Shown: positions 4,889 to 39,143 of the stretch, piece after piece | Numbering within the stretch: the first letter of the stretch is position 1 | Layout of the letters: each line of letters starts with the position of its first letter | Assembly: GCA_028821265.1 (NCBI GenBank) | Contig: JAPPGU010000033.1 | Location: 11,437-75,436, forward strand | Origin: a bacterium | GTDB lineage: Bacteria > Actinomycetota > Acidimicrobiia > Spongiisociales > Spongiisociaceae | DNA: 64,000 nt | Reading direction: 5' to 3' | Notes under the pieces: model-generated | Told to the model about the DNA's origin: nothing | Databases searched by the model: none | Seen by the model: the letters and a program-made list of their open reading frames with translations, nothing else | Program-made: the position numbers and the translations under genes

Positions 4889-4923
4889 CGGCCCGACTCC
4901 TCACAGACCACTAGGAGTTCCCG

Positions 4924-8355: not shown

Positions 8356-8397
8356 GGGGCGCACCCTCGTGAGAGGACAGCGGAGGCGTAGGCATCC

Positions 8398-10419: not shown

Positions 10420-10440
10420 TCGTGCTGACGTGAGTTCCCC

Positions 10441-10743: not shown

Positions 10744-10756
10744 TGGAGGGGACAGG

Positions 10757-12953: not shown

Positions 12954-12963
12954 ATCGGGTCCG

Positions 12964-13881
12964 ATGAAGATCTGGAGGGGCGATCCACTCGCCTGGGGAC
13001 CGGGCCCGGATGGCGGGACGGCACTGACCATAGGCGTATTCGACGGCGTCCACCGGGGTCACCGGACGCTGCTGGACGACCTGGCGGAGCAGGCCGTCCG
13101 AGCGGGGGGCCTCGAGACGGTCGTGGTTACGTTCGATGTCCATCCCCGCCGGTTCTTCGATCCGATCCACGGGCCGGCCTTGCTGGTGACGCTGTCGCGC
13201 CGGCTCGAGTTGCTGGAGTCGGCGGGTGCGGACCACGTGGGGGTGCTCCCTTTCGCGGACGTGCGCCACCTCGGTCCCGAGGACTTCATCCGCCGGGTGG
13301 TGTCGGGCGGGTTCAACGCCCGAGCCGTGGTGGTGGGGGAGGGTTTCCGGTACGGGGCCGGTAGATCCGGAGACGTGGACGACCTGGTGGCATCGGGCCA
13401 TTCCCACGGCTTCCGGGTCGAGGCCATCCGGCTGCAGGACGGTAAGGAAGGGCCGATCTCGTCGTCCACGATCCGTCGCCACATAGCGGTGGGTGAGGTG
13501 GCGGCTGCCGCCGAGTTGCTCGGCCGGCCTCATGAAGTGCCCGGCCGGCTCGTCACACCTGAGGAGAGAGGGGATGCCTCGACCCTGGCCGTGGATGTGA
13601 ACTGGTCGATGGCGGTGCCCGGATCCGGGGTATACGCAGTGACCCTGGGCGCGGACGACCCCGACAGCCCCGGCGCCTGCGCCATCGGTGGTGCCGGCCG
13701 ACCGCTCCGGGTCTGCCTGCCGGATCGGTCGACCGGTCCGGCTCCGGGTGACCGCCTGGTCCTGACCTTCCTCGACCGCCTCCGCCCTTCTCCGCCGGGA
13801 GGCAGTGCTCCACCCCGGATCACCCCCGCGGATCTCGCAGGAGTACTTCGCCTGAAGGGTGGTTCCTCCCGTCGAGTCTGA
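12964..13881 (+). CDS. ribF: RibF-type FAD synthetase / riboflavin kinase fusion with a divergent C-terminal kinase module
   Basis: GVFDGVHRGH, VVGEGFRYG, ISSSTIRRHI and AAELLGRP are typical of the FMN-adenylyltransferase half. The C-terminal half aligns only loosely with riboflavin kinase (see findings). ATG 12964 preferred. Confidence 0.8.
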   Translation: MKIWRGDPLAWGPGPDGGTALTIGVFDGVHRGHRTLLDDLAEQAVRAGGLETVVVTFDVHPRRFFDPIHGPALLVTLSRRLELLESAGADHVGVLPFADVRHLGPEDFIRRVVSGGFNARAVVVGEGFRYGAGRSGDVDDLVASGHSHGFRVEAIRLQDGKEGPISSSTIRRHIAVGEVAAAAELLGRPHEVPGRLVTPEERGDASTLAVDVNWSMAVPGSGVYAVTLGADDPDSPGACAIGGAGRPLRVCLPDRSTGPAPGDRLVLTFLDRLRPSPPGGSAPPRITPADLAGVLRLKGGSSRRV

Positions 13882-14004
13882 GCCCGCCCGCGGAGAGTGA
13901 GAAACGTAGGGGTTGAACTCCGGTGGATACGGGTCCACTATGGCCATCACGGGGCGCACGGGGGACGGCACACACCTGCAAGCGACATGATTGGATGATT
14001 TCAA

Positions 14005-14205
14005 GTGGACGATCGAGACCGCAACGGGCAGCTCTTTCGGGCCTATCTGGCCGTGTTCGAGCTCACCTACCTGCGCATCCTGCTGGCGTTCCTGCAATTC
14101 CAGCGCTGGGCCATGATCACCTTCTACCGCCTGGTGCTCGGGATCGACAAGCGCCCTCCGCCCCGGCCGACGCAGGCGGAGCTCCGGGAGAGGTACGGGC
14201 GGTGA
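14005..14205 (+). CDS. hypothetical small protein (66 aa)
   Basis: The only support is strong GC3 codon bias across the ORF (ctc, gcc, ctg, ttc, atc, cgc and similar) within an otherwise noncoding ribF-rpsO gap, plus a hydrophobic/amphipathic central helix (LAVFELTYLRILLAFLQF). GTG start, no clear SD. Confidence 0.4.
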   Translation: MDDRDRNGQLFRAYLAVFELTYLRILLAFLQFQRWAMITFYRLVLGIDKRPPPRPTQAELRERYGR

Positions 14206-14348
14206 AGCGAGGGGGGCACGCAAAATAGTCCGGTTGGTCTGATAGCGGGCAGCAGCACCCCGAGTCGACGGATCGCTGGTCAACCACCCCCGTCGCCAGC
14301 ACCTTCCTCGGCAGCTCGCGGCCGGCGCGCACCCGGTCGCCATGGAGG

Positions 14349-14357
14349 TGCTACACT
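14349..14357 (+). promoter_or_regulatory. candidate extended -10 promoter element for rpsO
   Basis: gtgcTACACT (TGn + TAnnnT) lies about 57 nt upstream of the rpsO ATG. No convincing -35. Confidence 0.25.
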
Positions 14358-14413
14358 CCGGCCGGTCCCCACTTCTACATGCCGGTCCGGTATGTGCTGA
14401 TCGAGTGAGAGAG

Positions 14414-14671
14414 ATGAAACCGACCCAGGAAATTGTTGCCGAGTTCGGCGCACACGACAGCGACACCGGATCTCCCGAGGTCCAGGTCGCGCTGCTCTCA
14501 CAGCGAATCCGTCACCTGACCGATCACCTGCGTGAGCACAAGCATGACCATCACAGCCGCCGAGGTTTGCTGATGATGGTGGGCAAGCGCAAGCGGCTAC
14601 TGGACTACCTGCGGACGAACGATGCCGAGCGGTATCGTCGGGTGATCGCCAAGCTCGGATTGCGTCGATAG
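14414..14671 (+). CDS. rpsO: 30S ribosomal protein S15
   Basis: [71 protein letters not shown]-like sequence upstream of ATG 14414. Confidence 0.95.
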
Positions 14672-14710
14672 CACTCCGTGGAGACGGTCGTTCCGTATCA
14701 AGAACGGACC

Positions 14711-14743
14711 GGCCACCGGCAGCGCTCGCTCGGTCCGGTGGCC
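14711..14743 (+). terminator. stem-loop in the rpsO-pnp intergenic region (rpsO terminator/attenuator or pnp leader structure)
   Basis: ggccaccgg (14711-14719) pairs with ccggtggcc (14735-14743), a 9-bp GC stem. There is no U-tract. rpsO-pnp leaders are known sites of RNase III/PNPase autoregulation. Confidence 0.4.
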
Positions 14744-14998
14744 AAGGAAGAAGTGGGATGATTCGAAGCGCCCGTATGGCGCTCATCGATAGTGATGGCT
14801 GATCGGGAAAGTCCCGTAGGCCAACCGAACCACACAAGCAGGCTGGTAGCGCCCGGAGAAACGGCGTAGATCAGTTGTCAGTCGCCATTCCTTCATGACG
14901 CGGCGCAGCTACGAAGCGTCCGGAGGTATGACCACTGGTAATTGACTTCGCCGCTCTCCGAGCGATAGGTGCCTGGGCATAGAAACCAAGGAGAGCAT

Positions 14999-17464
14999 GT
15001 GTCTGAACAAGTCGTTCGTGGCCTTATAGGTGAAAAAGAGGTCGTGATTTCCACCGGCAAACTCGCCGGTCAAGCAAACGGGGCGGTTCGCGTCTCCATG
15101 GGGGAGACGGAAGTGCTGGTCGCCGCCACCGCCAGCGACAAGCCGCGGGAGGGAGTGAGTTTCTTCCCCCTCACGATCGATGTCGAGGAGCGGATGTACG
15201 CGGTGGGCAAGATCCCCGGGTCCTTCTTCCGCCGGGAGGGTCGGGCCACCGAGCGGGCCACGCTGAGTGCCCGGCTCATCGACCGGCCCCTCCGCCCGTC
15301 CTTCCGTGACGGGTACCGCAACGACACCCATGTGGTGGCCACCGTGCTCCAGGTGGATGGTGAGACGGCCTATGACGTGCTGGCTCTCAACGGCGCGTCT
15401 GCGGCCCTGACCATCAGCGATCTCCCCTTCGAGGGACCGCTGGGCGGGGTCCGGCTGGGCCTGGGCGAGAACGGGTGGGTGCCGTTCCCCACGTTCAGCG
15501 AGTTGGAGGAGTGCGTGTTCGACCTGGTGGTGGTCGGCAAGCACAACGACTCAGGGGCCGTGGACATCATCATGGTGGAGGCCGGCGCCACCGACGGCGC
15601 CCTGGCCCTGATCGGAGAGGGTCATGCCCCACCGGACGAGGACGCAGTAGCAGCCGGCCTCGAGGAGGCCAAGGCCTACATCGGGCAGTTGCTCGATCTG
15701 CAGGGCGAGCTACAGGGACTTACCAATAAGGAAGTCGGGGAGTGGCCGTCGGTCATCGAATACACAGAGGATGTGTACGAGCGGGTGTCGGATCTGGCCG
15801 CCGACGGGATCGCCGAGGTGGTCAGGATTGCTGACAAGGCCGAGCGAGAGTCCGCTGGGGCGGAGTTGGCCGAGCGGGTGGCCGCGGAGTACGGCGTCGA
15901 TGAAGATGACGCCGAAACTGCTCGGCAGGTCAAGGCCGCGTTGCGAGCCGCCACCAAGAAGGCGATGCGCCGGCAGATCATCGATGAGGGAATCCGCATG
16001 GACGGCCGGGGTGTCACCGACATCCGGCCGCTGTCCGCCGAGGTCAACGTGTTGACCCGGGCCCACGGATCCGCGCTGTTCACCCGCGGGGAAACGCAGG
16101 TGCTGAACGTCCTCACGCTGGGCATGCCGCGCATGGAGCAGATGCTCGACACCATCAGCAACGAGGAAGCCAAGCGCTACATGCACCACTACAACTTCCC
16201 GCCCTACTGCACCGGGGAGGCCGGGTTCATGAGGGGACCCAAGCGGCGGGAGATCGGACACGGCGCTCTGGCGGAGAAGGCCCTCCTACCGGTGCTTCCT
16301 GCCGATGACGGGTTCCAATACACGCTCCGGCTGGTCTCGGAGGTGCTCTCGTCCAACGGGTCCTCCTCGATGGCATCGGTCTGTGGCTCCTCGCTCTCCC
16401 TTATGGATGCGGGCGTCAGGATCGCCGATCCGGTGGCCGGTATAGCCATGGGCTTGATCGCCGACGGTGACAACTACGTGACCTTGACAGACATCCTCGG
16501 GGCGGAGGACGCCTTGGGCGACATGGACTTCAAGGTGGCCGGAACCGCAGACGTCATCACCGCCCTCCAGCTCGATATGAAGATCGACGGTCTGCCGGCG
16601 GAGGTACTCGCCGGTGCCCTCATCCAGGCCAAGCAGGCCCGGATGGAGATACTGGATGTGATGATGGAGGCCATCGACGGGCCTCGCGAGGAGATGAAGG
16701 AGCATGCTCCCCGCCTCGAGACCGTCAAGATCCCGGTGGACAAGATCGGCGACATCATCGGTCCCAAGGGGAAGATCATCCGCGAGCTGGAGGCCGAGAC
16801 CGGCGCCTCGATCGAGGTTCAGGATGACGGCACGGTGCTGGTGTCCTCGAGTGACGGCACCTCACTGGCCGACGCCTTGAACCGGGTCAACGAGATCGCC
16901 TTCCCGCCGACGCCCGAAGTGGACAAGCAGTACGAGGGCAAGGTGGTGAGCATCACCGACTTCGGGGCGTTCATCAACATCCTTCCGGGCCGGGACGGCC
17001 TCCTCCACATCTCCAAGTTCGACAGCACCCGCCACGTGCGCCGGGTCGGCGACTACCTGTCCGAGGGTGATCCCCTGACGGTGGTGGTCGACTCCATCGA
17101 CCGCAACGGCAAGGTCTCGCTCAAGGTGACGGCCGACCTGGAGCCGAAGCCCGGCGCCAAGGTCGGGGCACCGGGCCAGCCGCGCGATCGGGGTGACCGA
17201 GGACCCGGACGGGGCGGCGGCGGGAGAGGCCCCAATCGGGGTCGCGGACCTCGCCAGGGTCGAGGCGGCGGCCGCCCGCAGGGCCGCGGCGGCAACCGGG
17301 GTCGTGGCCAGGGTGGTCGTGGCCAGGGTGGTCGTGGCCAAGGCGGTCGCGGCCAGGGTGGTCGTGGCCAGGGCGGCGGCGGCAACCGCCGGAGATCAGG
17401 CTCGGCAGGCAACGGCGGGCGTAGGTTCGCCTCCTTCGAGGACGCCTTCACCGACGGCATCTAG
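14999..17464 (+). CDS. pnp: polyribonucleotide nucleotidyltransferase (PNPase) with a C-terminal RGG-repeat tail
   Basis: Two RNase PH domains (FFRREGR, FMRGPKRREIGHGALAE), a KH domain (KIGDIIGPKGKIIREL), an S1 domain (YEGKVVSITDFGAFINI), then about 80 aa rich in RG/RGG. GTG 14999 is preceded by AAGGAGAG. Confidence 0.95.
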   Translation: MSEQVVRGLIGEKEVVISTGKLAGQANGAVRVSMGETEVLVAATASDKPREGVSFFPLTIDVEERMYAVGKIPGSFFRREGRATERATLSARLIDRPLRPSFRDGYRNDTHVVATVLQVDGETAYDVLALNGASAALTISDLPFEGPLGGVRLGLGENGWVPFPTFSELEECVFDLVVVGKHNDSGAVDIIMVEAGATDGALALIGEGHAPPDEDAVAAGLEEAKAYIGQLLDLQGELQGLTNKEVGEWPSVIEYTEDVYERVSDLAADGIAEVVRIADKAERESAGAELAERVAAEYGVDEDDAETARQVKAALRAATKKAMRRQIIDEGIRMDGRGVTDIRPLSAEVNVLTRAHGSALFTRGETQVLNVLTLGMPRMEQMLDTISNEEAKRYMHHYNFPPYCTGEAGFMRGPKRREIGHGALAEKALLPVLPADDGFQYTLRLVSEVLSSNGSSSMASVCGSSLSLMDAGVRIADPVAGIAMGLIADGDNYVTLTDILGAEDALGDMDFKVAGTADVITALQLDMKIDGLPAEVLAGALIQAKQARMEILDVMMEAIDGPREEMKEHAPRLETVKIPVDKIGDIIGPKGKIIRELEAETGASIEVQDDGTVLVSSSDGTSLADALNRVNEIAFPPTPEVDKQYEGKVVSITDFGAFINILPGRDGLLHISKFDSTRHVRRVGDYLSEGDPLTVVVDSIDRNGKVSLKVTADLEPKPGAKVGAPGQPRDRGDRGPGRGGGGRGPNRGRGPRQGRGGGRPQGRGGNRGRGQGGRGQGGRGQGGRGQGGRGQGGGGNRRRSGSAGNGGRRFASFEDAFTDGI
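17301..17375 (+). repeat. five tandem copies of a 15-bp unit (GTCGTGGCCAGGGTG) encoding (GRGQG)n within pnp
   Basis: Read directly: gtcgtggccagggtg x2, gtcgtggccaaggcg, gtcgcggccagggtg, gtcgtggccagggcg. Confidence 0.9.
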
Positions 17465-17479
17465 CCTTCGCGGAGAGCG

Positions 17480-17508
17480 CCCGGCCCACGCCAGTGACGT
17501 GGGCCGGG
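17480..17508 (+). terminator. GC-rich hairpin after pnp (putative terminator without U-tract)
   Basis: cccggcccacg (17480-17490) pairs with cgtgggccggg (17498-17508), an 11-bp perfect stem with a 7-nt loop. It starts 16 nt after the pnp stop. Confidence 0.5.
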
Positions 17509-17548
17509 GCACTGTCCATCGACAACCAACCACTGTAGGCTCGGCAGC

Positions 17549-18427
17549 ATGCCGGAACTGCCCGATGTGGTCGTGTATCTGGAGGCCCTCGAGCGGTTCG
17601 TCGGGGGGCGGGTTCTGGAACGGGCCAGGGTGGTGTCGATCTCGCTCCTCCGCACCTTCGACCCGCCGCTATCCGAAGTGGAGGGCAGGCGGGTGGTCGG
17701 GTTCCGCCGCATGGGGAAGCGCTTGGTCCTGGAGCTCGAGTACGACCTCTTCATGGTGTTCCACCTGATGATTGCGGGCCGGTTCAGATGGAGGGTTCGC
17801 GGCGCGGCCGTACCCAGGAAGGTCGGTCACGCCGCGTTCGACTTCCCGAACGGAACGCTGGTACTCACCGAACAGGGCTCCAGGAAGCGGGCCTCGTTGC
17901 ATGTGCACCGGGGCGCGGAGGGCCTGGACGAGCATGACCGCGGCGGCCTGGAGCCGCTCGAAGCTGGCCCGGCCGCTTTCGCCGAGGCGCTCAGACGGGA
18001 GAACCGGACGCTCAAGCGGGCGCTGACCGATCCCCGCATCCTCTCGGGTATCGGCAACGCATACTCGGACGAGATACTCCACCGGGCCGGGCTCTCGCCG
18101 GTGGTCCTGACCAGCCGGCTTGACGATCCCACCCTGGAGCGGCTCCGTGAGGCGACCGTCAGCACGCTGACCGAATGGGTGGATCGGATGCGGGACGAGG
18201 TGGGTGAAGGGTTCCCGGACCGGGTCACGGCCTTCCGGCCCGAAATGGCTGTCCATGGCAAGTACCGGCAGCCGTGTCCCGCGTGCGGGAGTCCGGTCCG
18301 GAGGATCGTGTACGCATCGAACGAGACCAACTACTGCGCCGGATGCCAGACGGGGGGCAGGATCCTGGCCGACCGGGCACTCTCACGGCTGCTGAAGGAC
18401 CAGTGGCCCGCCGCGATCCCGGACTGA
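17549..18427 (+). CDS. Fpg/Nei-family DNA glycosylase/AP lyase
   Basis: 292 aa. N-terminal MPELPDV (catalytic Pro2/Glu3), H2TH region (LTDPRILSGIGNAYSDEILH) and a C-terminal zinc finger CPACGSPV...YCAGCQ. Confidence 0.85.
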   Translation: MPELPDVVVYLEALERFVGGRVLERARVVSISLLRTFDPPLSEVEGRRVVGFRRMGKRLVLELEYDLFMVFHLMIAGRFRWRVRGAAVPRKVGHAAFDFPNGTLVLTEQGSRKRASLHVHRGAEGLDEHDRGGLEPLEAGPAAFAEALRRENRTLKRALTDPRILSGIGNAYSDEILHRAGLSPVVLTSRLDDPTLERLREATVSTLTEWVDRMRDEVGEGFPDRVTAFRPEMAVHGKYRQPCPACGSPVRRIVYASNETNYCAGCQTGGRILADRALSRLLKDQWPAAIPD

Positions 18428-18454
18428 CCTGGACCGGGAGCCTTCCAGGGGGGC

Positions 18455-19447
18455 TCAGCCCGCGGCGGCCTCGCGGAGTGCGGGGAGTACCTCCCGGCCC
18501 AGGAGGTCGATGAGACCCTCCTGGTCGACCGAGGCCATCTGGATGGTGACGATGTCGGCGTCGATCGAGCCCAGCAGCGGCAGGTACAGGTCGACGATGT
18601 CCTCGGCGCTGGTCGCCCTTGCGTAGCGTCCGAGTATCTCCTCGCGCGGTAGGTCGTCGGCTCGTTTCCGGAGCGTCATCGGATCGACGGCCTGGAGACG
18701 CCCCGGCGCCCGCAGCCCGCGCCACGAATACAGCGCTTCCCAAGCCTCGTCATCGTTACCCGCCATGATCGACCAGCGTGAGGTGAGCAGCAGCGGGCGG
18801 GGCCTTCCCGCCTCGGCCGCCGATTCCCGGGCCGGGTCGATGACCCGCTCCAGCGCGACCGCGGGATCCTTCACCGAGACGATTATCCCGTCCGCCTTGC
18901 GACCTGCCAGACCGGCTGTCTTGGGACCGCCCGCCGCCAGGAGGATCGGGACCCGGGATACCGGCGGGGAGTACAGCTTGGCCCGGTCGGTGGTGTAGTA
19001 CTCGCCGCTGTAGGAGAGTTTCTCTCCTTCCAGCAGGCGCCTCATGATGTCAAGCGCCTCCGACATCCGGGCCGCGCGCTCCGCGTACTTGGGGAAGTGA
19101 TATCCCAGCGGACCTTCGTTGATGTTCTCGCCGGTGCCCACGCCGAGGTTGAACCGCCCTCCGCTCAAGCGATTGAGGGTGGCGGCGGCCTGGGCCACGA
19201 TGGCGGGATGGAACCTCCACAAGGGGGTGGTCACCCCGGTCGTGATCTCGATCCGCTCGGTGGCCTCCGCCACGGCGCCCAGGGTCGAGAAGGAGAATCC
19301 GGAGGCCGACGCATCATCCACCCAAGGATGGAAGTGTTCCGAGACCACCAACATGTCGAAGCCGGCTTCCTCGGCGAGGACCGCATGGCGGACCACCTGC
19401 TCGGGATGCCACTGCTCGTGGCCGCAGAAGTAGGCGAAGCGTTTCAT
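18455..19447 (-). CDS. LLM-class (luciferase-like) F420-dependent oxidoreductase, G6PD-family-like
   Basis: 330 aa. MKRFAYFCGHEQWHPEQVV...SEHFHPW and LGVGTGENINE are typical of the actinobacterial F420-dependent LLM subfamily. Confidence 0.8.
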   Translation of the reverse strand: MKRFAYFCGHEQWHPEQVVRHAVLAEEAGFDMLVVSEHFHPWVDDASASGFSFSTLGAVAEATERIEITTGVTTPLWRFHPAIVAQAAATLNRLSGGRFNLGVGTGENINEGPLGYHFPKYAERAARMSEALDIMRRLLEGEKLSYSGEYYTTDRAKLYSPPVSRVPILLAAGGPKTAGLAGRKADGIIVSVKDPAVALERVIDPARESAAEAGRPRPLLLTSRWSIMAGNDDEAWEALYSWRGLRAPGRLQAVDPMTLRKRADDLPREEILGRYARATSAEDIVDLYLPLLGSIDADIVTIQMASVDQEGLIDLLGREVLPALREAAAG

Positions 19448-19477
19448 CGGACCATCTCCGTAGGGTCTGAGTGTCGT

Positions 19478-19585
19478 TCAGGCCGGATTGGGCCAGAGAT
19501 AGAGCGCCACCATGATCCCGAGGAAGATGACCGTGGCCAGAAAGGAGCCCCACCGGCTCCGGCCGTTGTCTGCAGGCGATGCCAT
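19478..19585 (-). CDS. possible 35-aa single-TM small protein
   Basis: MASPADNGRSRWGSFLATVIFLGIMVALYLWPNPA has one clear TM helix and mostly GC3 codons. It sits in the gap between two co-directional genes. No SD seen, so support is weak. Confidence 0.25.
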   Translation of the reverse strand: MASPADNGRSRWGSFLATVIFLGIMVALYLWPNPA

Positions 19586-19635
19586 TGCCGGGACAGGATA
19601 GACGGAATCGGAGGCCGGTATCAATCCTCCGGAGC

Positions 19636-20328
19636 TCACCAGAGAGGCCACGGCAAGGGGTGGCGGTCGGTGGGCGGGTATGGGTGGGTCGGATCGTGGA
19701 GGAGCGCCTCCACCCGGGCAGCCAGCGCGTCGGCTTCCTCGTCGCCGAGGAGTTCCTCGGTGCGGGTGTGGAGCCGACTGCCGATTGCCCGCTCGAGCCT
19801 CCTGAGGCAATCCACCATCGTGTCGGGGAGGGCTTGGCCGGAGAATCCCCACATCACGGTGCGGAGTTTGGGCTCGGCGTGGAGCGCCAGACCGTGATCG
19901 ATGCACCAGATCCGCCCCGAGCCGTCGGCGATCACGTGTCCGGCCTTGCGGTCGGCGTTGTTGATCACCAGATCCAGGGTGATGATCGGCCAGAGGCTCG
20001 GGTCGGCCTCGTTGATCAGGGGTGCCGGATCGAACTCCTCGTCCACCTCCACGAAGGCCTGGGCTGAGCCCGGTCCGAACGGCCCGCTGACCGGCACCGT
20101 CTCGGGAACGCAATCCAGCCCCGCCGCTCGGGCCAGCTCGAAGGTCAGCACCTCGCGGGCCGGCAGCGTCCGGCAGTCGAAGTCGTAGAGGGGTCGTTGT
20201 CCCTGCTCGGGCTTGTAGACCACCATCCGGCCCGCACGGGTCACCGCCAGCAAGGTTGCGTTGGAAGCGTTCTGGAACCGGCCGATGATCTCGGTGATGT
20301 CCCAGTCGTCGCCGGCCGGGCCGGTCAC
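19636..20328 (-). CDS. SCO1664-family protein (PI3/4-kinase-like fold, function unknown)
   Basis: Contains DLVINNADRKAGHVIAD and IWCIDHGLALH (kinase catalytic-loop and DxG-like motifs). GTG 20328 overlaps the stop of the upstream DUF3090 gene (GTGA). The longer track ORF to 20403 would overlap by 79 nt. Confidence 0.75.
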   Translation of the reverse strand: MTGPAGDDWDITEIIGRFQNASNATLLAVTRAGRMVVYKPEQGQRPLYDFDCRTLPAREVLTFELARAAGLDCVPETVPVSGPFGPGSAQAFVEVDEEFDPAPLINEADPSLWPIITLDLVINNADRKAGHVIADGSGRIWCIDHGLALHAEPKLRTVMWGFSGQALPDTMVDCLRRLERAIGSRLHTRTEELLGDEEADALAARVEALLHDPTHPYPPTDRHPLPWPLW

Positions 20329-22860: not shown

Positions 22861-23230
22861 CGGCGAGTTCGCCAGACGGCCGCGGTTGCCCAGGGCAATC
22901 GAGGAAAGTCCGGACTCCACAGGACAGGGAGCTGGGTAACGCCCAGGCGGGGCGACCCGACGGAAAGTGCCACAGAGATCAGACCGCCGATGGCCCTCTC
23001 GGGGGCACAGGCAAGGGTGAAACGGTGGTGTAAGAGACCACCAGCATCCCGGGAGACCGGGGTGGCTGGTAAACCCCTCCCGGAGCAAGGTCAAGCAGAG
23101 GCGTCGGTGGTCCGCCGGTCAAGCTTCGGGTGGACCGCACCGAGGTCTGGCGGCAACGCAGACCCCAGATGGATGGCCGTCGCCCGTCACAGGCGGGTAC
23201 AGAATCCGGCTTACCGGCGGGCTCGCCGTA
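22861..23230 (+). ncRNA. rnpB: RNase P RNA, bacterial type A
   Basis: Universally conserved cgaGGAAAGTCCGGactccacagg (P4 5' strand), gggtaacgccc, agggtgaaacggtggtgtaagagaccacc and gtACAGAAtCCGGCTTAccgg (P4 3' strand). The P1 helix pairs ggcgagttcgcc (22862-22873) with ggcgggctcgcc (23216-23227). Confidence 0.93.
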
Positions 23231-25643: not shown

Positions 25644-25716
25644 TCCCGCCAATTCACCGGAGATCTTCATCCGGATGGCGCACGTTTACATCCGTCCGAT
25701 GCTTATCATCCCGGAT

Positions 25717-26466
25717 ATGAGAGGTCGTAATCGAGTGCTGGCCACCGTCCTGGCCGCCGTGGTCGCCGTGGGGGCGTGCGGAGGCGGCTCGGACGAGCAG
25801 GCCACACCCGAACCCGCGGAGCCGGCCACCACTTCAGCGGCGACTACGGCCGCGACCACTGCTCCCAGCCCCACCATTTCAGAAGGTACGTCTGCCGAGT
25901 CCCCCACGACCACGGCCGCTGCGACTGCCGAGACGACCGTGGCAACGGAACCTGCCGCCACTCCGGAGACGACTGCGGTCACGGAAACTACCTCCGCTCC
26001 GGAACCCACCGCTGCTCCACAGACGACCGTGGCAACGGAACCCGCCTTCGTCCCCGAGGGCCCTCCTATCCCGGCGTTGACGCTGGAACTGGACGACGGG
26101 ACCACCTTCGTCACGACCGAAGCCACCCGGCCCGTCCTCTACCTGTTCTGGGCGGAGTGGTGACCGTCATGCCGACGGGAGTTACCCGTCGTCGACTCTG
26201 TGGCCGCCGAGTACGCCGGCCAGGTGGACGTGATCGCGGTCGCCTGGGCATCGACGTACGACAAGACGGCCTCCGCAGCCCGCGGATTCCTGAGCTCGGG
26301 GGCCACCCGCTGGTTGCTGGATGAGGACAATTCGATTTTCGCCGCCTTCGAGGTGACCTACCAGCCGGTCGGAGTGTTCGCGGTGAGTGGTGTCGAGGTC
26401 AACCGCTGGTTCGGTTCCATCCCCGAGCAGGAGTTCCGCCAAGCAATCACCGACGCCCTGGCGTAG
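25717..26466 (+). CDS. TlpA/ResA-like thioredoxin-fold lipoprotein. Either a candidate selenoprotein, with in-frame TGA 26161-26163 read as Sec (UxxC), or a nonsense-disrupted pseudogene
   Basis: Signal/lipobox-like MRGRNRVLATVLAAVVAVGAC, then a T/A/P/E-rich linker. Next comes PVLYLFWAEW-TGA-PSCRRELPVVDSVAAEYAGQVDVIAVAW...LLDEDNSIFAAFEVTYQPVGVFAV. Track ORFs 25675-26163 and 26200-26466 are in the same frame (525 nt apart), with no other stop between them. Confidence 0.6.
26173..26191 (+). promoter_or_regulatory. candidate bacterial SECIS hairpin downstream of the in-frame UGA
   Basis: cgacggg (26173-26179), loop aguua, cccgucg (26185-26191): a 7-bp perfect stem starting 10 nt after the UGA. 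The loop contains GU. Confidence 0.4.
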
Positions 26467-26668: not shown

Positions 26669-28010
26669 CTACAGGGCGGTGGCGATGGTGAGGGTGTAGG
26701 TGCCCGTTCCATCCCCGAAGCTGGTCACCTCGACGTAGTAGGTGCCTGTGCTCGGCGCCAACCAAATGAGCCGGGACGCTGTCGAGTCGCCATAGTCGTC
26801 GTTACCGTCCAGCCATGTGCCGTCGGCGTCGTATAGGTCGAGTACGGAGTCTTGGAGGGTTCCGAGGGTTAGGTCCAGGTCGTAGAACTCCCCCTCTGTG
26901 GCTTGGAAGGCGAAGTAGTCGCCGTCGCCCTCGTATTCCATCTCGCCCTCGACGGCCATGCCTAGCTCGACGGCCGTTGCGTTTGCTGTCGAATTCGGGT
27001 GGTCGTCTGTGATGTCCGAGATGGTGATGGTGAGGGTGTAGGTGCCGGTGCCGGTGTCGAAGCTGGTCACCTCGACGTAGTAGGTGCCTGTGCTCGGCGC
27101 CAACCAAATGAGCCGGGACGCTGTCGAGTCGCCATAGTCGTCGTTACCGTCCAGCCAGGTGCCGTCGGCGTCGAGTAGCTCAAGTACGGAGTCTTGGAGG
27201 GTTCCGAGGGTCACTTCTATGTCGTAGATTTCGCCCTCTGTGGCTTGGAAGGCGAAGGAGTCAGCGTCGCCTGAGTATTCCAGTTCTCCTTGGTTGGCCA
27301 CGTCGAGCTCGACGGATGTTGCGTTTGCTGTCGAATTCGGGTGGTCGTCTGTGATGTCTGAGACAGTGATGGTGAGGGTGTAGGTGCCGGTGTCGAAGCC
27401 GGTGACTTGGACGTAGTAGCTACCCGTGCTCGGTGCGTACCAGGTTATGTTGTCGTTGCCGGCCTGTCCGGTCAGCCAGTTGCCGTCGGCGTCGAATATG
27501 TCCAGTACCGAGTCCTGGAGGGTTCCGAGGGTTACGTCCAGTTCGTAGAACTCGCCCTCCGTGGCTTCGAAGGCGAAGAAGTCAATGTCGTCCTCGTATT
27601 CCAACTCGCCTCGGGCAGACACACCGAGCTCGACGGATGTTGCGTTTGCTGTCGAATTCGGGTGGTCGTCTGTGATGTCTGAGACAGTGATGGTGAGGGT
27701 GTAGGTGCCGGTGCCGGGTCCGAAGCTGGTGACTTCGACGTGGTAGGGGCCGGTGCCAGGTGCTTGCCAAATGAGCCGCGATGCTGTCGAGTCGCCGTAG
27801 TCGTCGTTACCGGCCAGCGGGTGGCCTTCGGCGTCGTATAGGTCGAGTACGGAGTCTTCGAGGGTTCCGAGCGCGACGTCCAGTTCGTAGTACTCGCCCT
27901 CTGTGGCTTCGAAGGTGAAGAAGTCACGATCGTCCGCGTACTCCAACTCGCCAGGGACAGACACGCCGATCTCAACCGGTGTCGCCTCCCCGAGCAACTC
28001 GTCCGAAGGG
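26669..28010. repeat. intragenic tandem DNA repeats (about 342-bp period) encoding the PPC domains
   Basis: A 97-nt run is perfectly identical between 26719-26815 and 27061-27157 (offset 342 nt). The segment gttgcgtttgctgtcgaattcgggtggtcgtctgtgatgtc recurs three times. Confidence 0.9.
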
Positions 28011-29053
28011 AGCGCGCCGGCCGCCGACCACGCTAGGTCCGGAACGCAGTCGAACAGGCCGGGGAGGAATTCAAAGAGCCCGAGGTCGTCGGCGGAGCCC
28101 GTGAGGAGGCTTGTCCAGTCGGTGTCGGTTACCCATTCGCGAAGGCAGGATGCTTCCTCCTCGCTGAGGTCTTCGAGGGTCATGCCGGTTTCCTCGAGCA
28201 TGGACGAGATGAACATGTCGGGGGCGCATTCGATCAGATCGGCGGCGAAGCCCATGAGATCGGAGGGGTCGTCGGCGGAGCCGGTGAGGAGGTTTGTCCA
28301 GTCGGTGTCGGTTATCCACTCGCGAAGGCAGGATGCTTCCTCCTCGCTGAGGTCTTCGAGGGTGAGGCCCGTTTCCTCGAGCATGAGTGAGACGATCAGG
28401 TCCCGATTGCAGGCCAAGAACGCGGTGGTGACATCCCCTGTCACCTCCGTGTCATCAATCGACAGGGCCAGCATGGTGGCAACCACGTCGAGCCCGGCCA
28501 CCCACTCGGCCAGGCAGGCTTCCGTGTCCGCGTCCAATTCGAATGCCTCGTCCTCTCCCAATCCCGCGACCATCGTGGAGAGGAATACGGCTTGGGCGGT
28601 CTCAGGAGCGAGGCACGAGAAAATCAAGATCACCCACGCCTCCGGTGTCTCTGCCTCCGACATGACCGGCAGGGCCAGCACCGACTCCAAGGTGTCGCCA
28701 TCGAACGTGTCGCGGACACACTCCTGCTCGGAAGTGGTGAGAGCGTCGAACACGTCTCCCCATTCGGTGTCCGTGTCCACCCGGAGATCGAAGTCGGAGG
28801 TGGCTTCGGTCGTATCGGGTGGGGCCGTTGTCGTCGTGCTTGGCGCGGTTGTCGTGCTGGCCGAAGTCGTTGTTGGAGTCGTAGTAGTGCTGCTTGGACT
28901 CGTTGTCGTGCTGCTTTCGGCTGTGGAGGTTGACTCCGGCGTCGAGTCGCCCCCGCAACCCGCCAGGGCGATGATGACGGCCAGAGCGCCCAATATCGGG
29001 ATCCAATGGACACGACGAGGCGTCACCGATGACTTCGAAAGACCGCTCGACAT
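26669..29053 (-). CDS. large lipoprotein: S/T-rich linker, four Cys-pair helical repeats, four pre-peptidase C-terminal (PPC)-like domains, no catalytic domain
   Basis: 794 aa. Lipobox IIALAGCGG and a poly-S/T linker. Repeats of type LEDLSEEEASCLREW(I/V)TDTDW..LLTGSADD......C(A/V)PD. Four C-terminal repeats GELEY..D.D.F.F.A.EGE.Y.LD..LGTL.DSVL.L.DA.G.W..GNDDYGDSTASRLIW.AP.TG.YYV.V.SF..GTGTYTLTI are typical of PPC (bacterial pre-peptidase C-terminal) domains. Confidence 0.8.
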   Translation of the reverse strand: MSSGLSKSSVTPRRVHWIPILGALAVIIALAGCGGDSTPESTSTAESSTTTSPSSTTTTPTTTSASTTTAPSTTTTAPPDTTEATSDFDLRVDTDTEWGDVFDALTTSEQECVRDTFDGDTLESVLALPVMSEAETPEAWVILIFSCLAPETAQAVFLSTMVAGLGEDEAFELDADTEACLAEWVAGLDVVATMLALSIDDTEVTGDVTTAFLACNRDLIVSLMLEETGLTLEDLSEEEASCLREWITDTDWTNLLTGSADDPSDLMGFAADLIECAPDMFISSMLEETGMTLEDLSEEEASCLREWVTDTDWTSLLTGSADDLGLFEFLPGLFDCVPDLAWSAAGALPSDELLGEATPVEIGVSVPGELEYADDRDFFTFEATEGEYYELDVALGTLEDSVLDLYDAEGHPLAGNDDYGDSTASRLIWQAPGTGPYHVEVTSFGPGTGTYTLTITVSDITDDHPNSTANATSVELGVSARGELEYEDDIDFFAFEATEGEFYELDVTLGTLQDSVLDIFDADGNWLTGQAGNDNITWYAPSTGSYYVQVTGFDTGTYTLTITVSDITDDHPNSTANATSVELDVANQGELEYSGDADSFAFQATEGEIYDIEVTLGTLQDSVLELLDADGTWLDGNDDYGDSTASRLIWLAPSTGTYYVEVTSFDTGTGTYTLTITISDITDDHPNSTANATAVELGMAVEGEMEYEGDGDYFAFQATEGEFYDLDLTLGTLQDSVLDLYDADGTWLDGNDDYGDSTASRLIWLAPSTGTYYVEVTSFGDGTGTYTLTIATAL

Positions 29054-31932: not shown

Positions 31933-32039
31933 GTGTCCACCTCCAGGATCCCGGCCCGCGGCTCCGCTCTCAGGCCTGCCACGTGCTCATCGGCCCGTTA
32001 GAGTTCCACTCGGCTCGCGATGGCCGACTGGAGGGTTCG

Positions 32040-32981
32040 ATGAACGATGCCGGAACGGTCATGACGGTACTTGGGCCGGTGCCGGCGAACGAACTCGGGT
32101 TCACCCTTCCCCACGAGCATATCTACTGCACCCTGCGCCATGCCGACTACCGCTACGACGTGGCCGATCAGTTCGTGGACGAGGAGGTGATGGCGGACGA
32201 GGTCGGGGCCTTCGCCGACCTGGGGGGCGAGACCATCTTCGACCTGAGCGTTCCCGACAACGGCCGGTCCCCGGAGCGGTTGCGAACGTTGTCGGAGCGG
32301 ACAGGTGTGCACTTCGTCATGGGCTGCGGCTGGTATCGCGGCAACTACTACCTGCCCGAGGAACGGATCGACCGGCGGCCGGCCGGTGACCTCGCGGACG
32401 AACTGATCCGGGAGATAACCGACGGGGTGGGCGACACGGGGATCCGCCCCGGCGTGATCGGTGAGATCGGGTCCGAGAAGGACTGGGTGTCACCCGCCGA
32501 GGAAAGGGTGTTGCGGGCCGCCGCCCGGGCCCACAAGGCCACCGGTCTGGCCATCGGCGCGCTCCACGCCATCGGACCGGTCGCCCCCGAGCAGCTCACC
32601 ATCCTCGAGGAGGAGGACGTGGACCTGACCCGGGTGGCGGTCGCCCACTGCGACGCCTACCCGCACCTCCGTTACCTGCTCGGACTCATGGAGAGGGGTG
32701 TGTACATCATGTTCGACAACTGTGGCCAGTTCAGGGGACTGGGTCAGTTCGAGAACCGGATCCTCGCCCTGATCGTGGAACTCGTGGACCGCGGCCTGGA
32801 GGACCGGCTGATGTTGTCCCACGACGTCTGCAAGCTCGGACAGTTGCGGATACACGGTGGCACCGGGTTTACCTACCTGTTCGAGACGTTCCTGCCGGCC
32901 CTCTCGGCCAAGGGCATACCGGACGAGACGATCAGGACCATCACCCATGACAACCCCCGGCGCTGGTTGACAGGGGTATGA
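32040..32981 (+). CDS. phosphotriesterase-family (PTE/PHP-like) metal-dependent hydrolase, copy 1
   Basis: From MNDAGTVMTVLGPV: LPHEHI (HxH), GVIGEIGSEK (Glu at the bridging-ligand position as in PHP), VAVAHCD and MLSHDV. Confidence 0.85.
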   Translation: MNDAGTVMTVLGPVPANELGFTLPHEHIYCTLRHADYRYDVADQFVDEEVMADEVGAFADLGGETIFDLSVPDNGRSPERLRTLSERTGVHFVMGCGWYRGNYYLPEERIDRRPAGDLADELIREITDGVGDTGIRPGVIGEIGSEKDWVSPAEERVLRAAARAHKATGLAIGALHAIGPVAPEQLTILEEEDVDLTRVAVAHCDAYPHLRYLLGLMERGVYIMFDNCGQFRGLGQFENRILALIVELVDRGLEDRLMLSHDVCKLGQLRIHGGTGFTYLFETFLPALSAKGIPDETIRTITHDNPRRWLTGV

Positions 32982-35950: not shown

Positions 35951-37537
35951 CTAGCGCTGCTTACGGGCGATCTGGCCCCGGCGGGCCCGGGTGGGACCCC
36001 CCGGGTCTACCGCGACCGCACCGCCGACGATTACCCAGTCGATCCCGGAGGGTGAGAGCTCGGGCTGGTCATATGTCGCCCGGTCGATCACCCTGTCCGG
36101 GTCGAAGGCGACCAGGTCGGCTCGCTGTCCCGGTGCGATCTCACCTCGGTCGTCCAGCCCGACCCGCCGTGCTGCCCGGAACGAGAGCCGGGCGATGGCT
36201 TCGCGTACTGTGACGACGCCATCCCTGATGGCGTAACCGCCCAAGAACCGGGGTGCGGTGCCCCACAGCCTCGGGTGGGGGGTGGCGGCGAAGACCGCGT
36301 CGCTGCCCACCAGCATGGCCGGGTGCCGGGCGATGGCCTTGACGACGGATTCGTCGGCGTAATGGAGGATGACCAGCGCGCTCATCCCGGTTTCCAGCAA
36401 GAGGTCGATGACCACCCGTTCGGGCTCGACTCCACGGGCGGAGGCGATCTCGGCCAGCGTGCGCCCCATTGCGTCGCCGGGGCCGTCGAGCCCGCAGTCG
36501 ATCACGACGATGCCCTCCGGGCCGCACTGGTAGTAGAAGCTCTCCGGGCCCGCGTCCGGGTCTCCGAGCGCCTGGAGCAGACGGTCCACCGTAGGGCGGT
36601 CCCGCAAACGAGCTGTCATCTGGTTGACGCCCCCGTCATGTGCCCACGGGGGCAGCAGGGCGGACAGCAGGGTCACACCGGCGCCGTACGGGTACTGGTC
36701 GAAGGTGACATCGACCCCGTCCGCCGGCGCCCTGTCGATCATTTCGAGCAGCGGTTCCAGCTTCCAGGCGTTGCGATGCCCAAGCACTTTCAAATGGGAG
36801 AGGTGAAGGGGCGCACCACTCCGTCGTGACACGTCGATCATCTCCTCGACCGCCTCCAGCAGGTTGTGGCTCTCGCCCCGCATGTGGACGGAGATCAGCC
36901 CGCCGAACCGGCCCGCCTCGGTGGCGACGGCCACGACCTCGTCGCGGTTCGCGTACGCGCCCGGGGTGTACACGAGGCCGAAAGAGATTCCCCACGCGCC
37001 CGCCTCCATGCCTCGGGCCACCTGGCGCCGCATGGCACGCAGCTCGTCGGCGCCGGGTGCCCGCTGGGCACCCCCCAACACGGCGTCACGCACGGCACCA
37101 TGAGGCACGAACGGGCACAGGGTGATGGCGGGACGCGTACCGTCCAGGGCGTCCAGGTACTGGCCGATGGATCGCCAGGGCCACTCGGCAGGGCCTCGAC
37201 CTTCCGACAGAGCCAGCTGTGTCATCCGATCGGCCAGACCCTTGTCCGTTACGGGTGCCGGACCCATCCCGTCAGGGTTGATCAGCTCCGTAGTGAAGCC
37301 CTGGAGAAGCTTCGGCGTGAGGATCGGATCCTCGAAGGTACGCAGAGCGCTGTGGGCGTGCATGTCCACGAATCCGGGCGCCAGGCACAGTCCCCCGAGG
37401 TCGATGGTCCGGGCCGCTTCGTGCTGGAGTCCTGGGCCCACCGCTACCATGACGCCGTTGTCGATTGCGACATCTCCCGGCCGAGGCTCGGCGTCGCCGG
37501 GGTAGATCGTCGCATTCCGCAGGAGAAGGTCGACCAT
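35951..37537 (-). CDS. N-acyl-D-amino-acid deacylase (D-aminoacylase)-family amidohydrolase
   Basis: 528 aa. MVDLLLRNATIYPG...IDNGVMVAVG...LAPGFVDMHAHS, later SVHMRGE, LHLSHLKV and VGSDAV. The layout is typical of D-aminoacylases. Confidence 0.8.
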   Translation of the reverse strand: MVDLLLRNATIYPGDAEPRPGDVAIDNGVMVAVGPGLQHEAARTIDLGGLCLAPGFVDMHAHSALRTFEDPILTPKLLQGFTTELINPDGMGPAPVTDKGLADRMTQLALSEGRGPAEWPWRSIGQYLDALDGTRPAITLCPFVPHGAVRDAVLGGAQRAPGADELRAMRRQVARGMEAGAWGISFGLVYTPGAYANRDEVVAVATEAGRFGGLISVHMRGESHNLLEAVEEMIDVSRRSGAPLHLSHLKVLGHRNAWKLEPLLEMIDRAPADGVDVTFDQYPYGAGVTLLSALLPPWAHDGGVNQMTARLRDRPTVDRLLQALGDPDAGPESFYYQCGPEGIVVIDCGLDGPGDAMGRTLAEIASARGVEPERVVIDLLLETGMSALVILHYADESVVKAIARHPAMLVGSDAVFAATPHPRLWGTAPRFLGGYAIRDGVVTVREAIARLSFRAARRVGLDDRGEIAPGQRADLVAFDPDRVIDRATYDQPELSPSGIDWVIVGGAVAVDPGGPTRARRGQIARKQR

Positions 37538-39143
37538 GCACCGAGCCTACCCCGGGGAGAGGTCCGCGATTACCGGCGCCGATGCACTGATCGAATCGCT
37601 CCGGGTGAACGGCGTCCGGCACGTCTTCGGCATTCCGAGCACCCACACGCTCGAGATCTACCGCGCGCTGGGCAGGGCACCTGACATCGCGCACATCACC
37701 ACCACCCATGAGCAGGGTGCAGCCTTCATGGCGGATGGTTACGCCCGGGTGACCGGCAGCCCGGGGGTGTGCCTCATTACCACCGGGCCGGGCGTTACCA
37801 ATGCGGCAACCGCGATCGCCGAAGCCTATTCCGACTCCGTTCCGGTGTTCTGCATTACCGCCCACATCCCGAGCGAGGATATCGGGCGCGGCAGGGGTCA
37901 CTCGCACGAACTCCGTTCCCAGGAGAGCGTCCTGGAGGGCATCTCCGACAGGCCTCGGCTCGTGCTCTCGCCTGACGAGGTGGCTCAGGCGGTGTGCGAC
38001 GCGTTCCGGCGGTTCAGGACCGAGCGACCCCGGCCGGTGTGCCTGGCCATTCCCGTGGACGTGCAGGAGGCGGCGACCTCCGCCCCTGTTCCGGCCGCAC
38101 CCGCCGAGGATCCACCCGCTCCGGACGGGGACGCGGTTGGCAGGGCCTGCCGGCTGCTCGGTTCGGCCGCGGCGCCCGCCATCGTGGCAGGTGGCGGTGC
38201 TCAAGGGGCGGTCGAGGAGGTGTTGGCGATTGCCGAGCGACTTGACGCGCCCGTCGCAACCACGCTCAACGGGAAGGGGGTGGTCCCGGGCGGTCATCCT
38301 CTGGAGGCTTCGCTGGTTGTCTACAGCGCGGTGGCGCGTTTCCTCGAAGGGTGTGACGTGGTGCTGGCCGTGGGCACGGAGCTGAGCCCGGCGGACTTCT
38401 GGCTGGGCCCGCTGCAACTGGGTGGGAAGCTGGTACAGATCGACATCGACCGAGACCAGATCGGACGCAACCACCCGGTGGACGCGGCGGTGGTGGGGGA
38501 GGCCGGGACGGCGTTGGCGATGATGCTCGACTCCGTTGCGGGTTCGAGCCCCCGGGCTGGTGCTGCCCGTGCCGCCCATGTACGCGACGCGGCGGAGAAG
38601 GAGGCGTTGGTAATGGGCCGGACCTACCTTCCCTGGATCCGAGCCCTGCGGTCGGCTATGCCCGAGGAGTCCTCCCTCGCCCTGGATGTGGCGATGGTGG
38701 CCGGATTCGGCGCTTTCCCCTTCTACGACCTTCCCGGACCGCGGACATGGATCAACCCGTCCGGTCTGGCCACTCTGGGATACGCGTTGCCCGCGGCGAT
38801 CGGCGCCAAGATCGCCCGGCCCGACAGAGCAGTGGCCGCGCTGGTGGGGGACGGCGGGTTCATGTTCACAATGTCCGAGCTGATGGTGGCCGCGCAACAC
38901 CGGCTGGCGCTCCCGGTGGTCATCTGGAACGACCGGGCCTTCGGAGAGATAAGCCGCCTGATGCGGGAACGAGGGTTCGAGCCGTTCGCCACCGACCTGG
39001 CGGTCCCGGACCTGGCAACCCTGGCCTCCGCTTACGGAGCGGCATGGGCGCGCGCGGACGAGCCCCCCGATCTGGCGGACGCGGTGGAGGTTGCCCTGGC
39101 AGCCGACGGCCCGACCCTGATCGAGGTGCCCGCATGGTCATAA
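37536..39143 (+). CDS. thiamine-diphosphate enzyme, acetolactate-synthase-large-subunit-like, copy 1
   Basis: 535 aa. GADALIESLRVNGVRHVFGIPS, HEQGAAFMADGYARVTG, TTGPGVTNA and ThDP motif GDGGFMFTMSEL...VIWNDRAFG. Confidence 0.88.
   Translation: MHRAYPGERSAITGADALIESLRVNGVRHVFGIPSTHTLEIYRALGRAPDIAHITTTHEQGAAFMADGYARVTGSPGVCLITTGPGVTNAATAIAEAYSDSVPVFCITAHIPSEDIGRGRGHSHELRSQESVLEGISDRPRLVLSPDEVAQAVCDAFRRFRTERPRPVCLAIPVDVQEAATSAPVPAAPAEDPPAPDGDAVGRACRLLGSAAAPAIVAGGGAQGAVEEVLAIAERLDAPVATTLNGKGVVPGGHPLEASLVVYSAVARFLEGCDVVLAVGTELSPADFWLGPLQLGGKLVQIDIDRDQIGRNHPVDAAVVGEAGTALAMMLDSVAGSSPRAGAARAAHVRDAAEKEALVMGRTYLPWIRALRSAMPEESSLALDVAMVAGFGAFPFYDLPGPRTWINPSGLATLGYALPAAIGAKIARPDRAVAALVGDGGFMFTMSELMVAAQHRLALPVVIWNDRAFGEISRLMRERGFEPFATDLAVPDLATLASAYGAAWARADEPPDLADAVEVALAADGPTLIEVPAWS

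Follow-up and report, generated by a model that had tools for sequence, protein, structure and literature searches.

A conserved in-frame UGA at the catalytic cysteine position of a predicted lipid-anchored ResA/TlpA/DsbE-fold oxidoreductase of Acidimicrobiia is a probable selenocysteine codon

Replacement of cysteine by selenocysteine (Sec, U) in the CxxC motif of thioredoxin-fold proteins is textbook knowledge. TlpA-like selenoproteins with a UxxC motif have been catalogued since 2004-2005 and are an established category (PMC13188914 Table 1; PMC1088965). The catalogued families are thioredoxin-fold oxidoreductases with Sec for the first Cys of CxxC, with widespread Cys homologues and with a hairpin resembling a selenocysteine insertion sequence (SECIS) right past the UGA, which presents a G in a small apical loop, and the gene described here is like them in these respects. 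It was found at 25717..26466 (+) in a stretch of 64,000 nucleotides (positions 11,437 to 75,436 of contig JAPPGU010000033.1, assembly GCA_028821265.1), here called the window, from a bacterium of the Spongiisociaceae (Acidimicrobiia), where it is split in two by an in-frame TGA. We estimate at about 0.9 the probability that this UGA is a Sec codon in an exported, lipid-anchored oxidoreductase of the ResA/TlpA/DsbE fold with the motif W-U-P-S-C. Given that the UxxC TlpA-like category is established, the window protein would add to a known kind and would involve no new mechanism.

Comparison with individual described proteins shows both likeness and difference. Hallmarks of the family are FWAEW-U-PxC-RRELPVVD, a predicted lipobox and a linker that is long and of low complexity, and it may coincide with a catalogued UxxC family (MGB1650493.1, WP_011366075.1, HEU0032618.1). 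The NCBI-curated ResA-like WAxxUGC selenoprotein NF041054 has the same W-A-x-x-U context, which is W-A-E-W-U in the window, but the window protein scores 24.7 bits against a cut-off of 300, has U-P-S-C where NF041054 has U-G-C, and offers a domain of ~139 residues to a profile of 354 positions; it does not belong to that family. DsbF of Mycobacterium tuberculosis (Rv1677, 3IOS) is the solved structure that matches best by sequence, at a phmmer E-value of 1.3e-10 over domain residues 17-135, and its FWAPWCPTC...PVV aligns with FWAEW-U-PSC...PVV of the window. DsbF and Mpt53 are CxxC oxidoreductases with the DsbE/ResA fold that actinobacteria export, and they reportedly serve as oxidants; DsbF and DsbE/Mpt53 (1LU4) are also high structural matches to the model of a Cys orthologue, P0209, described below. 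They differ from the window protein in having Cys and not Sec, and at an identity of only ~30% the likeness need not mean orthology. The closest fold is that of Bacillus subtilis ResA, including its N-terminal beta-hairpin and central insertion, whereas the anchors differ: ResA is anchored by a transmembrane helix and the window protein has a putative lipobox. Etrx1 and Etrx2 of Streptococcus pneumoniae (4HQS, 4HQZ) are lipoprotein-anchored TlpA-like domains on the outward side of the membrane of a monoderm and are also structural matches, but they are Cys-based. Their partner is an extracellular methionine sulfoxide reductase; no gene for such a partner was seen next to the window gene.

In the window the gene appears as two ORFs (open reading frames), 25675-26163 (162 aa) and 26200-26466 (88 aa), which share one frame at an offset of 525 nt and have between them just the TGA at 26161-26163 and 12 sense codons (26164-26199). 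The window letters at 26158-26175 are TGG TGA CCG TCA TGC CGA and the residues just before the TGA are LYLFWAEW, which gives the site context FWAEW-[TGA]-PSC. The joined translation reads ...TRPVLYLFWAEW*PSCRRELPVVDSVAAEY... and its sole other stop is the TAG at 26464-26466, the true end of the gene. Judging from the MRGRNR n-region, ATG 25717 is the most plausible start (MRGRNRVLATVLAAVVAVGAC...), and the complete recoded gene would then comprise 249 codons plus TAG, in a single frame with one TGA that the Pfam domains span. On the basis of conservation and of the Cys column, the UGA is residue 149, at the place of the nucleophilic Cys. The TGC at 26170-26172, which is TGC or TGT in 106 of 107 distinct sequences, encodes Cys152, the proposed resolving Cys of U-P-S-C. 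After the TGA the G+C content by codon position is 0.63/0.50/0.84, as in coding sequence. The original prediction had described two same-frame ORFs separated by the TGA and 12 codons, a coding-like bias with no further stop past the TGA, and a gene that callers would report as two pieces; coordinates, composition and the frame open to the TAG all agree with it, and both the ORF list of the window and the public copies show the fragments. UGA is not reassigned here, since it ends 21 of the 39 confident window genes.

The TGA is conserved far beyond the window. Several assemblies from ENA and Logan contain the exact C-terminal fragment, on 13 contigs in all, and the split is the same at all five of the places shown. 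When the joined domain was searched against 5.8 billion proteins, 57 clusters were obtained and every one of them consists of fragments, 46 C-terminal (80-107 aa) and 11 N-terminal, the latter all stopping exactly at ...FWAEW. The annotation of all public copies seen is either a pair of "hypothetical" fragments or a truncated TlpA. A survey of one genome per GTDB species gave 20 loci in 19 species, all of them named metagenome-assembled genomes (MAGs) of Acidimicrobiia/Candidatus Spongiisociaceae, which are sponge symbionts. The window has 99% identity to WTGI01000084.1, and the MAGs nearest to it are WTGI01 and GCA_028821235.1. At the 19 survey loci that cover the site, the TGA is present in 19; after it come P-[SAT]-C and a frame that stays open for 98-100 codons, and no second stop or frameshift occurs among the genome loci covering it. 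The original prediction had proposed to inspect related genomes for TGA as opposed to TGC or TGT, and it is TGA that they carry, with no additional lesions. The gene is also present on the complete chromosomes OZ241858.1, OZ253564.1, OZ241390.1, OY760694.1, OZ246890.1, OY282370.1, OZ241842.1 and OZ251535.1, and OZ253564.1 has two paralogues (L012 and L018) ~0.8 Mb apart, both with the TGA and the hairpin described below.

Outside the sponge symbionts, a homologue from stromatolite and other metagenomes (L029; MAG GCA_050329555.1) has the TGA at the site with 42% identity over the C-terminal part. Furthermore, JGI metagenome contigs were scanned with the DNA pattern W-A-E-W-[TGA|TGC|TGT]-P-x-C-R-R-E, and 77 of the 80 loci returned have TGA while three have a Cys codon; this ratio is skewed to Sec forms because the pattern requires R-R-E, which the hairpin may fix. 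In all, 107 distinct TGA-bearing sequences were gathered, and the named sources of the TGA family are all Acidimicrobiia. One copy departs from the motif: the second copy in MAG APA_bin_98 (L024; JAPOQZ010000221.1, a 2.1-kb contig, ~1548-1880) reads U-P-S-R, its Cys codon being changed to CGT with the TGA and the hairpin retained. This copy may be a paralogue in decay, may work by another mechanism or may result from misassembly.

An exhaustive HMMER search that took the 100 residues past the TGA as query found full-length homologues of the Cys form, namely P0209 (FWAEWCPVCRRELPVVD), P0211, P0219, P0227 and P0220. All five have FWAEW-C at the TGA column and the first four have FWAEW-C-PxC. The gene of P0227 lies directly after trpD, as does the window gene, and the P0209 locus and the TGA-form locus L029 have the neighbours SRAP, MIP channel and ccm operon in common; since the flanking genes match, the TGA and Cys forms are positional orthologues. 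In BLASTP the joined window protein aligns with P0209 over 127 aa at 50% identity (E 1e-40), unbroken at the TGA, and phmmer places the first Cys of FWAPWCPTC of M. tuberculosis DsbF at the same column. Thus the alignment with Cys-containing homologues, which the original prediction had named as a check, shows Cys at the TGA column in DsbF as well as in the syntenic orthologues of the P0209 type. Such a Sec/Cys pairing at a catalytic Cys is a classical criterion for selenoproteins (PMC1088965). The three Cys forms from JGI (L057, L090, L071) are rare ones inside the R-R-E subgroup. In L057 the codon is TGC yet the hairpin is intact, which suggests, as far as the sequence can tell, a recent conversion from Sec to Cys, and in L090 and L071 the hairpins are degraded.

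The ratio of nonsynonymous to synonymous substitutions (dN/dS) was calculated by the Nei-Gojobori method for 19 diverged genome sequences. It is 0.14 for the 34 domain codons before the TGA (dS ~1.06) and 0.21 for codons 46-135 after it (dS ~1.02). A dN/dS of 0.21 at dS ~1 in the region past the TGA excludes a pseudogene, and it is from this selection that the frame past the TGA is judged to be translated.

Right past the UGA lies the proposed SECIS hairpin, C-GACGGG / AGUUA / CCCGUC-G at 26173-26191 (+), for which RNAalifold, the pairing and a suppression of synonymous change speak. Its core is a 6-bp G+C stem formed by 26174-26179 with 26185-26190, closed by the loop AGUUA at 26180-26184; the apical loop begins 16 nt past the UGA and the loop G-U is ~20 nt from it. 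The RNAalifold consensus of 20 orthologues is this same C-GACGGG-AGUUA-CCCGUC-G stem-loop. Among the 107 sequences the six core pairs are kept in 98-100%, and the loops are AGUUG in 94, AGUUA in 10, AGCUC in two and AACUC in one, with a G in 106 of them. Codon choice is nearly fixed across the element: the second Arg is CGG in all 107 sequences, Glu is GAG in 106, Leu is TTG or TTA in 104, Pro is CCC in 104 and Val is GTC in 100, and the third-position entropy is 0-0.6 bit in the hairpin codons compared with 1.2-1.8 bit in the flanks. Elsewhere in this alignment, Leu columns are mostly CTG or CTC. For the nine codons past the UGA the synonymous diversity is 0.17, whereas the remainder of the gene has 0.43, and no other stretch of the gene is as low (permutation p = 1.4e-4), and at codons with four- or sixfold degeneracy it is 0.15 against 0.49 (Mann-Whitney p = 1.2e-4); the local dS at the hairpin is 0.28 against ~1.0. 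The Cys-form locus L035 provides a control, as it encodes the peptide CRRELPVV by TGC CGC CGC GAG CTC CCG GTG GTG, a sequence in which the hairpin is impossible.

In bacterial SECIS elements the apical loop lies 16-37 nt past the UGA (PMC10778597) and the consensus has a G in this loop (PMC1088965). On sequence grounds, the position and the loop G of the window hairpin fit such an element. Like the SECIS of Escherichia coli fdhF, it is a hairpin within the coding sequence directly past the UGA, with a C after the UGA and the loop G-U ~20 nt off, but its stem is shorter and free of bulges (6-7 bp), and it is backed mainly by codon choice and not by covariation. When 26155-26230 is folded to minimum free energy, the UGA becomes part of a stem (GGUGACCGUC/GACGG...UUACC); this fold was rejected because its column-16:24 pair is broken in most orthologues, whereas the GACGGG/CCCGUC stem is conserved. 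An Rfam search of 26100-26300 at permissive E-values gave noise only, Rfam having no usable bacterial SECIS model. Finally, a deduplicated subset of ~0.45 Mb was scanned for a TGA followed after 6-32 nt by a stem of 6 bp or more with an AGTTN loop, the frames being open to either side; only the TGA lipoprotein family and a second UxxC family matched.

This second candidate selenoprotein family has a thioredoxin fold with WFFAPW-[TGA]-P[AS]C, and two copies with 61% identity were seen, one at L015:2655-3824 (+) with its TGA at 3492 and one in L043 with its TGA at 3769. The copy in chromosome OZ241390.1 is fused to SLH (S-layer homology) repeats and the one in an ENA contig to RCC1 repeats, and gene callers split both copies. 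The hairpins, GUCGAGC-AGUUC-GCUCGGC and GUUGAGC-AGUUU-GCUCAAC, differ by compensatory changes and have the AGUU loop of the main family; in L015 the loop begins 34 nt past the UGA. Within the window, no further TGA-split frame with a coding-like peptide context was found. One of the other TGA-split matches, at 11214 (-), is antisense to the DHH-family gene at 10813-12075.

Several observations weigh against Sec at this site. Genes for selA, selB, selD and tRNA-Sec were found neither in the window nor in its 10-kb extensions nor in the related loci, ~1.2 Mb that were sampled around this gene only and are uninformative in this respect. Indeed, ARAGORN reported no tRNA-Sec on the window or the loci, Pfam found no SelA, SelB or SelD among 30 window ORFs, and tblastn with the SelA, SelB and SelD of E. 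coli and Miltoncostaea retrieved initiation factor IF-2 only from the ~1.2 Mb. Moreover, a SelA search anchored on the plasmid selD-selA-selB of Miltoncostaea oceani gave no link to Spongiisociaceae among its best 120 matches, those that could be placed being Thermoleophilia-like. As for the hairpin, only 66% of the 107 sequences can form its outermost pair (26173:26191), and among 20 sequences the covariation amounts to one compensatory change from A-U to G-C with a few G-U intermediates, which 102 of 500 shuffles equalled. The weakness of the covariation follows from the fact that the element barely varies; given that it is not significant, reliance was placed on the suppression at synonymous sites and on the Cys-form control. 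Part of the nucleotide conservation in the hairpin is at the level of the protein, since R-R-E-L-P-V-V is also kept in Cys forms. In a subclade formed by L067, L111 and L121 (P-[VS]-C-RRELPVIDAVAS), the TGA is kept, Leu is encoded by CTC and the loops, AGCUC in L067 and L121 and AACUC in L111, lack the G-U, the latter lacking any G. These loops would be unexpected if the G-U is a determinant for SelB.

Two clades were sampled by the SelA search, from unrelated assemblies (BUSI22, JANMDV01, JANMUL01). There, in uncultured high-G+C bacteria, the genes are arranged as moaE-selA-(TPR protein)-selB (L039:10001-13436 and L146:10001-13427), with a small tetratricopeptide repeat (TPR) gene between selA and selB, an arrangement of which no description was found. 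Closer to the window, Sec machinery and selenoproteins are reported from the Actinomarinales, which form a different order within the Acidimicrobiia (bioRxiv 10.64898/2026.04.03.716425). The use of Sec in that order, the second UxxC family and the match to in-silico criteria for selenoproteins (PMC1088965) give indirect support for Sec at the window site.

The trivial alternative named by the original prediction is a nonsense mutation of TGC or TGT to TGA, for which one base change suffices and which would leave a pseudogene of two decaying ORF remnants; gene callers and NCBI indeed treat the pieces as separate hypothetical proteins. The stop has however been kept over dS ~1, in 107 distinct sequences and down to 42% protein identity, with a dN/dS of 0.21 behind it and no second stop or frameshift in the genome loci covering the site. 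Both paralogues of one chromosome keep the TGA, and contaminated copies of a single sequence are ruled out by the divergence of the relatives. With purifying selection acting downstream, we regard the nonsense mutation as excluded for practical purposes. An error of one base in sequencing or assembly is a general possibility only and has a negligible probability here, as the identical arrangement is found in independent ENA, Logan, NCBI and JGI assemblies, long-read complete chromosomes among them. Two separate polypeptides, an anchored stub ending at the TGA and a free C-terminal fragment made by re-initiation at a nearby TTG or GTG, would agree with the starts that gene callers pick, namely GTG 26200 for the window gene and, for most orthologues, the TTG that encodes the loop Leu. 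This TTG is not a conserved start, because the window has TTA at this codon, as do 10 of the 107 sequences, and three have CTC. Furthermore, the codons from the TGA to the start (P-x-C-R-R-E, including the resolving Cys) are conserved as protein, and neither half by itself yields a thioredoxin fold; the site lies inside both the domain models and the region of structural match. We therefore give re-initiation very little credence.

It is also conceivable that the UGA is read through in genomes lacking the Sec machinery, with the hairpin promoting insertion of Trp, Cys or Gly by a near-cognate or dedicated tRNA, or some other recoding. In bacteria with the standard code, we know of no case in which a UGA at an active-site Cys is stably recoded as anything but Sec. 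The failure to find the Sec machinery in the ~1.2 Mb around the gene loci and the three family members whose loops lack the G-U thought to be needed for SelB would fit such a read-through. On the other side, the UGA stands exactly at the catalytic Cys and has Cys in its place in orthologues, the signature of selenoproteins (PMC1088965), the geometry of the hairpin fits a bacterial SECIS with its loop 16 nt off and a G-U (PMC10778597), UGA is a normal stop elsewhere, and Sec is used in the same class (bioRxiv 10.64898/2026.04.03.716425). On balance, read-through without Sec is quite unlikely. A related possibility is that canonical selABCD is absent and that the hairpin with its 6 bp and AGUUG loop makes the catalytic UGA be recoded by another mechanism, so far undescribed, to which we assign a slim chance. 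In a milder variant, the lineage may have its own SECIS/SelB pair, with a strict consensus common to at least two unrelated exported UxxC families.

If the UGA is a Sec codon, the protein would be assembled from three parts. At its N-terminus a charged n-region and a hydrophobic core precede V-G-A-C21-G-G, and this putative signal peptide, MRGRNRVLATVLAAVVAVGA-C21, takes up 25717-25779 (+), the codon of Cys21 being TGC at 25777-25779. The hydrophobic stretch and [AG]-C-G-G are kept in the N-terminal fragments of orthologues, in L029 and in the Cys forms, and the motif at Cys21 is probably a lipobox providing a lipidated anchor. A low-complexity linker of Thr, Ala, Pro and Glu follows (residues 22-110, 25780-26046 (+)), ~90 residues which differ widely in length and sequence among orthologues. 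The thioredoxin-fold domain of ResA/TlpA/DsbE type, as recognised by Pfam and NCBIfam, phmmer and the orthologue model, makes up residues 111-249 (26047-26463 (+)). With Cys put at the stop, Pfam gives a single stretch across the TGA for Redoxin (35.2 bits, cut-off 26.6), Thioredoxin (33.1, cut-off 23.5) and AhpC-TSA (29.2, cut-off 26). The more specific NCBIfam equivalogs all stay under their cut-offs, with 28.9 against 170 for ResA (NF002854), 27.2 against 230 for TlpA (NF047696), 25.2 against 123 for DsbE (TIGR00385) and 33.3 against 210 for StoA (NF041202); hence the protein would work like these proteins and is a member of none of them.

The fold of the window protein was taken from an AlphaFold2 model of P0209, which is 50% identical to it across the domain. 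This model, calculated from an alignment of 52 sequences, has a pLDDT (predicted local distance difference test) of ~97 in the domain, whose secondary structure is bb-b-a-b-a-b-a-bb-a with the N-terminal beta-hairpin and the central insertion, and of ~60 in the part equivalent to the linker, which shows no secondary structure. Cys92 of P0209 precedes the helix 93-108. In Foldseek the best match is B. subtilis ResA (1ST9), with a template-modelling (TM) score of 0.91 and a root-mean-square deviation of 1.5 Å over 137 residues, and further matches are DsbE, M. tuberculosis DsbF, Mpt53, pneumococcal Etrx1/2 and CcmG. The TlpA/ResA/DsbE-like core that the original prediction had seen around the site is thus borne out, as Pfam spans the TGA and the orthologue model matches ResA. 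The Gln and Pro of the Y-Q-P motif are invariant in alignment A1 (Q103 and P104) and the Pro also in the wider alignment A3; this residue is Pro217 of the window protein, encoded by CCG at 26365-26367 (+), and is presumably the cis-proline of the thioredoxin fold that faces the active site.

Taken as a mechanism, a factor of the SelB type with Sec-tRNA(Sec), held by the hairpin at 26173-26191, would insert Sec at the UGA 26161-26163 so that termination does not occur. The precursor would be exported, lipidated at Cys21 and anchored on the outer side of the cytoplasmic membrane, with the flexible linker as a tether. There, the selenolate at the N-terminus of helix alpha-1 may attack the disulfides of substrates (or their thiols), and the resulting selenenylsulfide would then be resolved by Cys152. 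The delivery of Sec by SelB, the lipidation, the redox direction, the substrates and the partner are points that we infer.

The genomic surroundings add a hint as to function. In Acidimicrobiia that are not from sponges, a ccmABCDEFH operon lies ~1.5-2 kb downstream of the gene (L029:12240-18368; L035:8416-14538). In the sponge symbiont the ccm genes are ~45 kb from the gene (L145:175-1935, ~7-9 kb beyond window position 64000), and metabolic and transport genes fill this distance. The ancestral proximity to ccm may reflect a functional link, although gene order is only a hint of one. Given that the ccm operon has its own Redoxin gene resembling CcmG/ResA, the window protein would be an additional oxidoreductase.

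As regards the rest of the window, positions 1-20000 hold cdsA, dxr, an M50 protease like rseP, ispG, proS, nusA, infB, a DHH phosphoesterase, ribF, pnp and fpg, and the left extension (L144) holds rpsB, tsf, pyrH, frr and a tyrosine recombinase. Owing to this block of core housekeeping genes at 1-20000 and in L144, the window is considered chromosomal and not a mobile element. The Rfam scan at gathering thresholds had a single match, a full-length bacterial RNase P RNA of class A at 22864-23229 (+) with 275.9 bits. At 26669-29053 (-) and 47566-49662 (-) lie genes for two large proteins that are predicted to be exported and carry PPC (pre-peptidase C-terminal) domains; the first of them has the lipobox-like N-terminus ALAGCGGDS and near-identical repeats, LTITVSDITDDHPNSTANAT... 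four times and MLEETG[LM]TLEDLSEEEASCLREW twice. The region 29201-63956 is rich in paralogues, with phosphotriesterase-family genes at 31983-32981, 49718-50644, 55221-56195 and 56304-57302, several enzymes dependent on thiamine pyrophosphate (37536-39143, 53617-55986, 57321-59123), amidohydrolases, class-III aminotransferases and two sets of ABC (ATP-binding cassette) transporters of the oligopeptide type.

The unit of UGA and hairpin offers a practical search key, as it gave no false matches in the deduplicated subset of ~0.45 Mb, and if the lineage does have its own SECIS/SelB pair, the selenoproteome of an uncultured class would be readable straight from sequence. Should the UGA indeed encode Sec, the protein would be a lipid-anchored, extracytoplasmic addition to the bacterial selenoproteome, and re-annotation would alter gene counts as well as functional inference. 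Furthermore, selenium would then be required by an exported redox enzyme that is widespread in Acidimicrobiia, among them the dominant actinobacterial symbionts of marine sponges, which would make selenium a nutrient for these symbionts.

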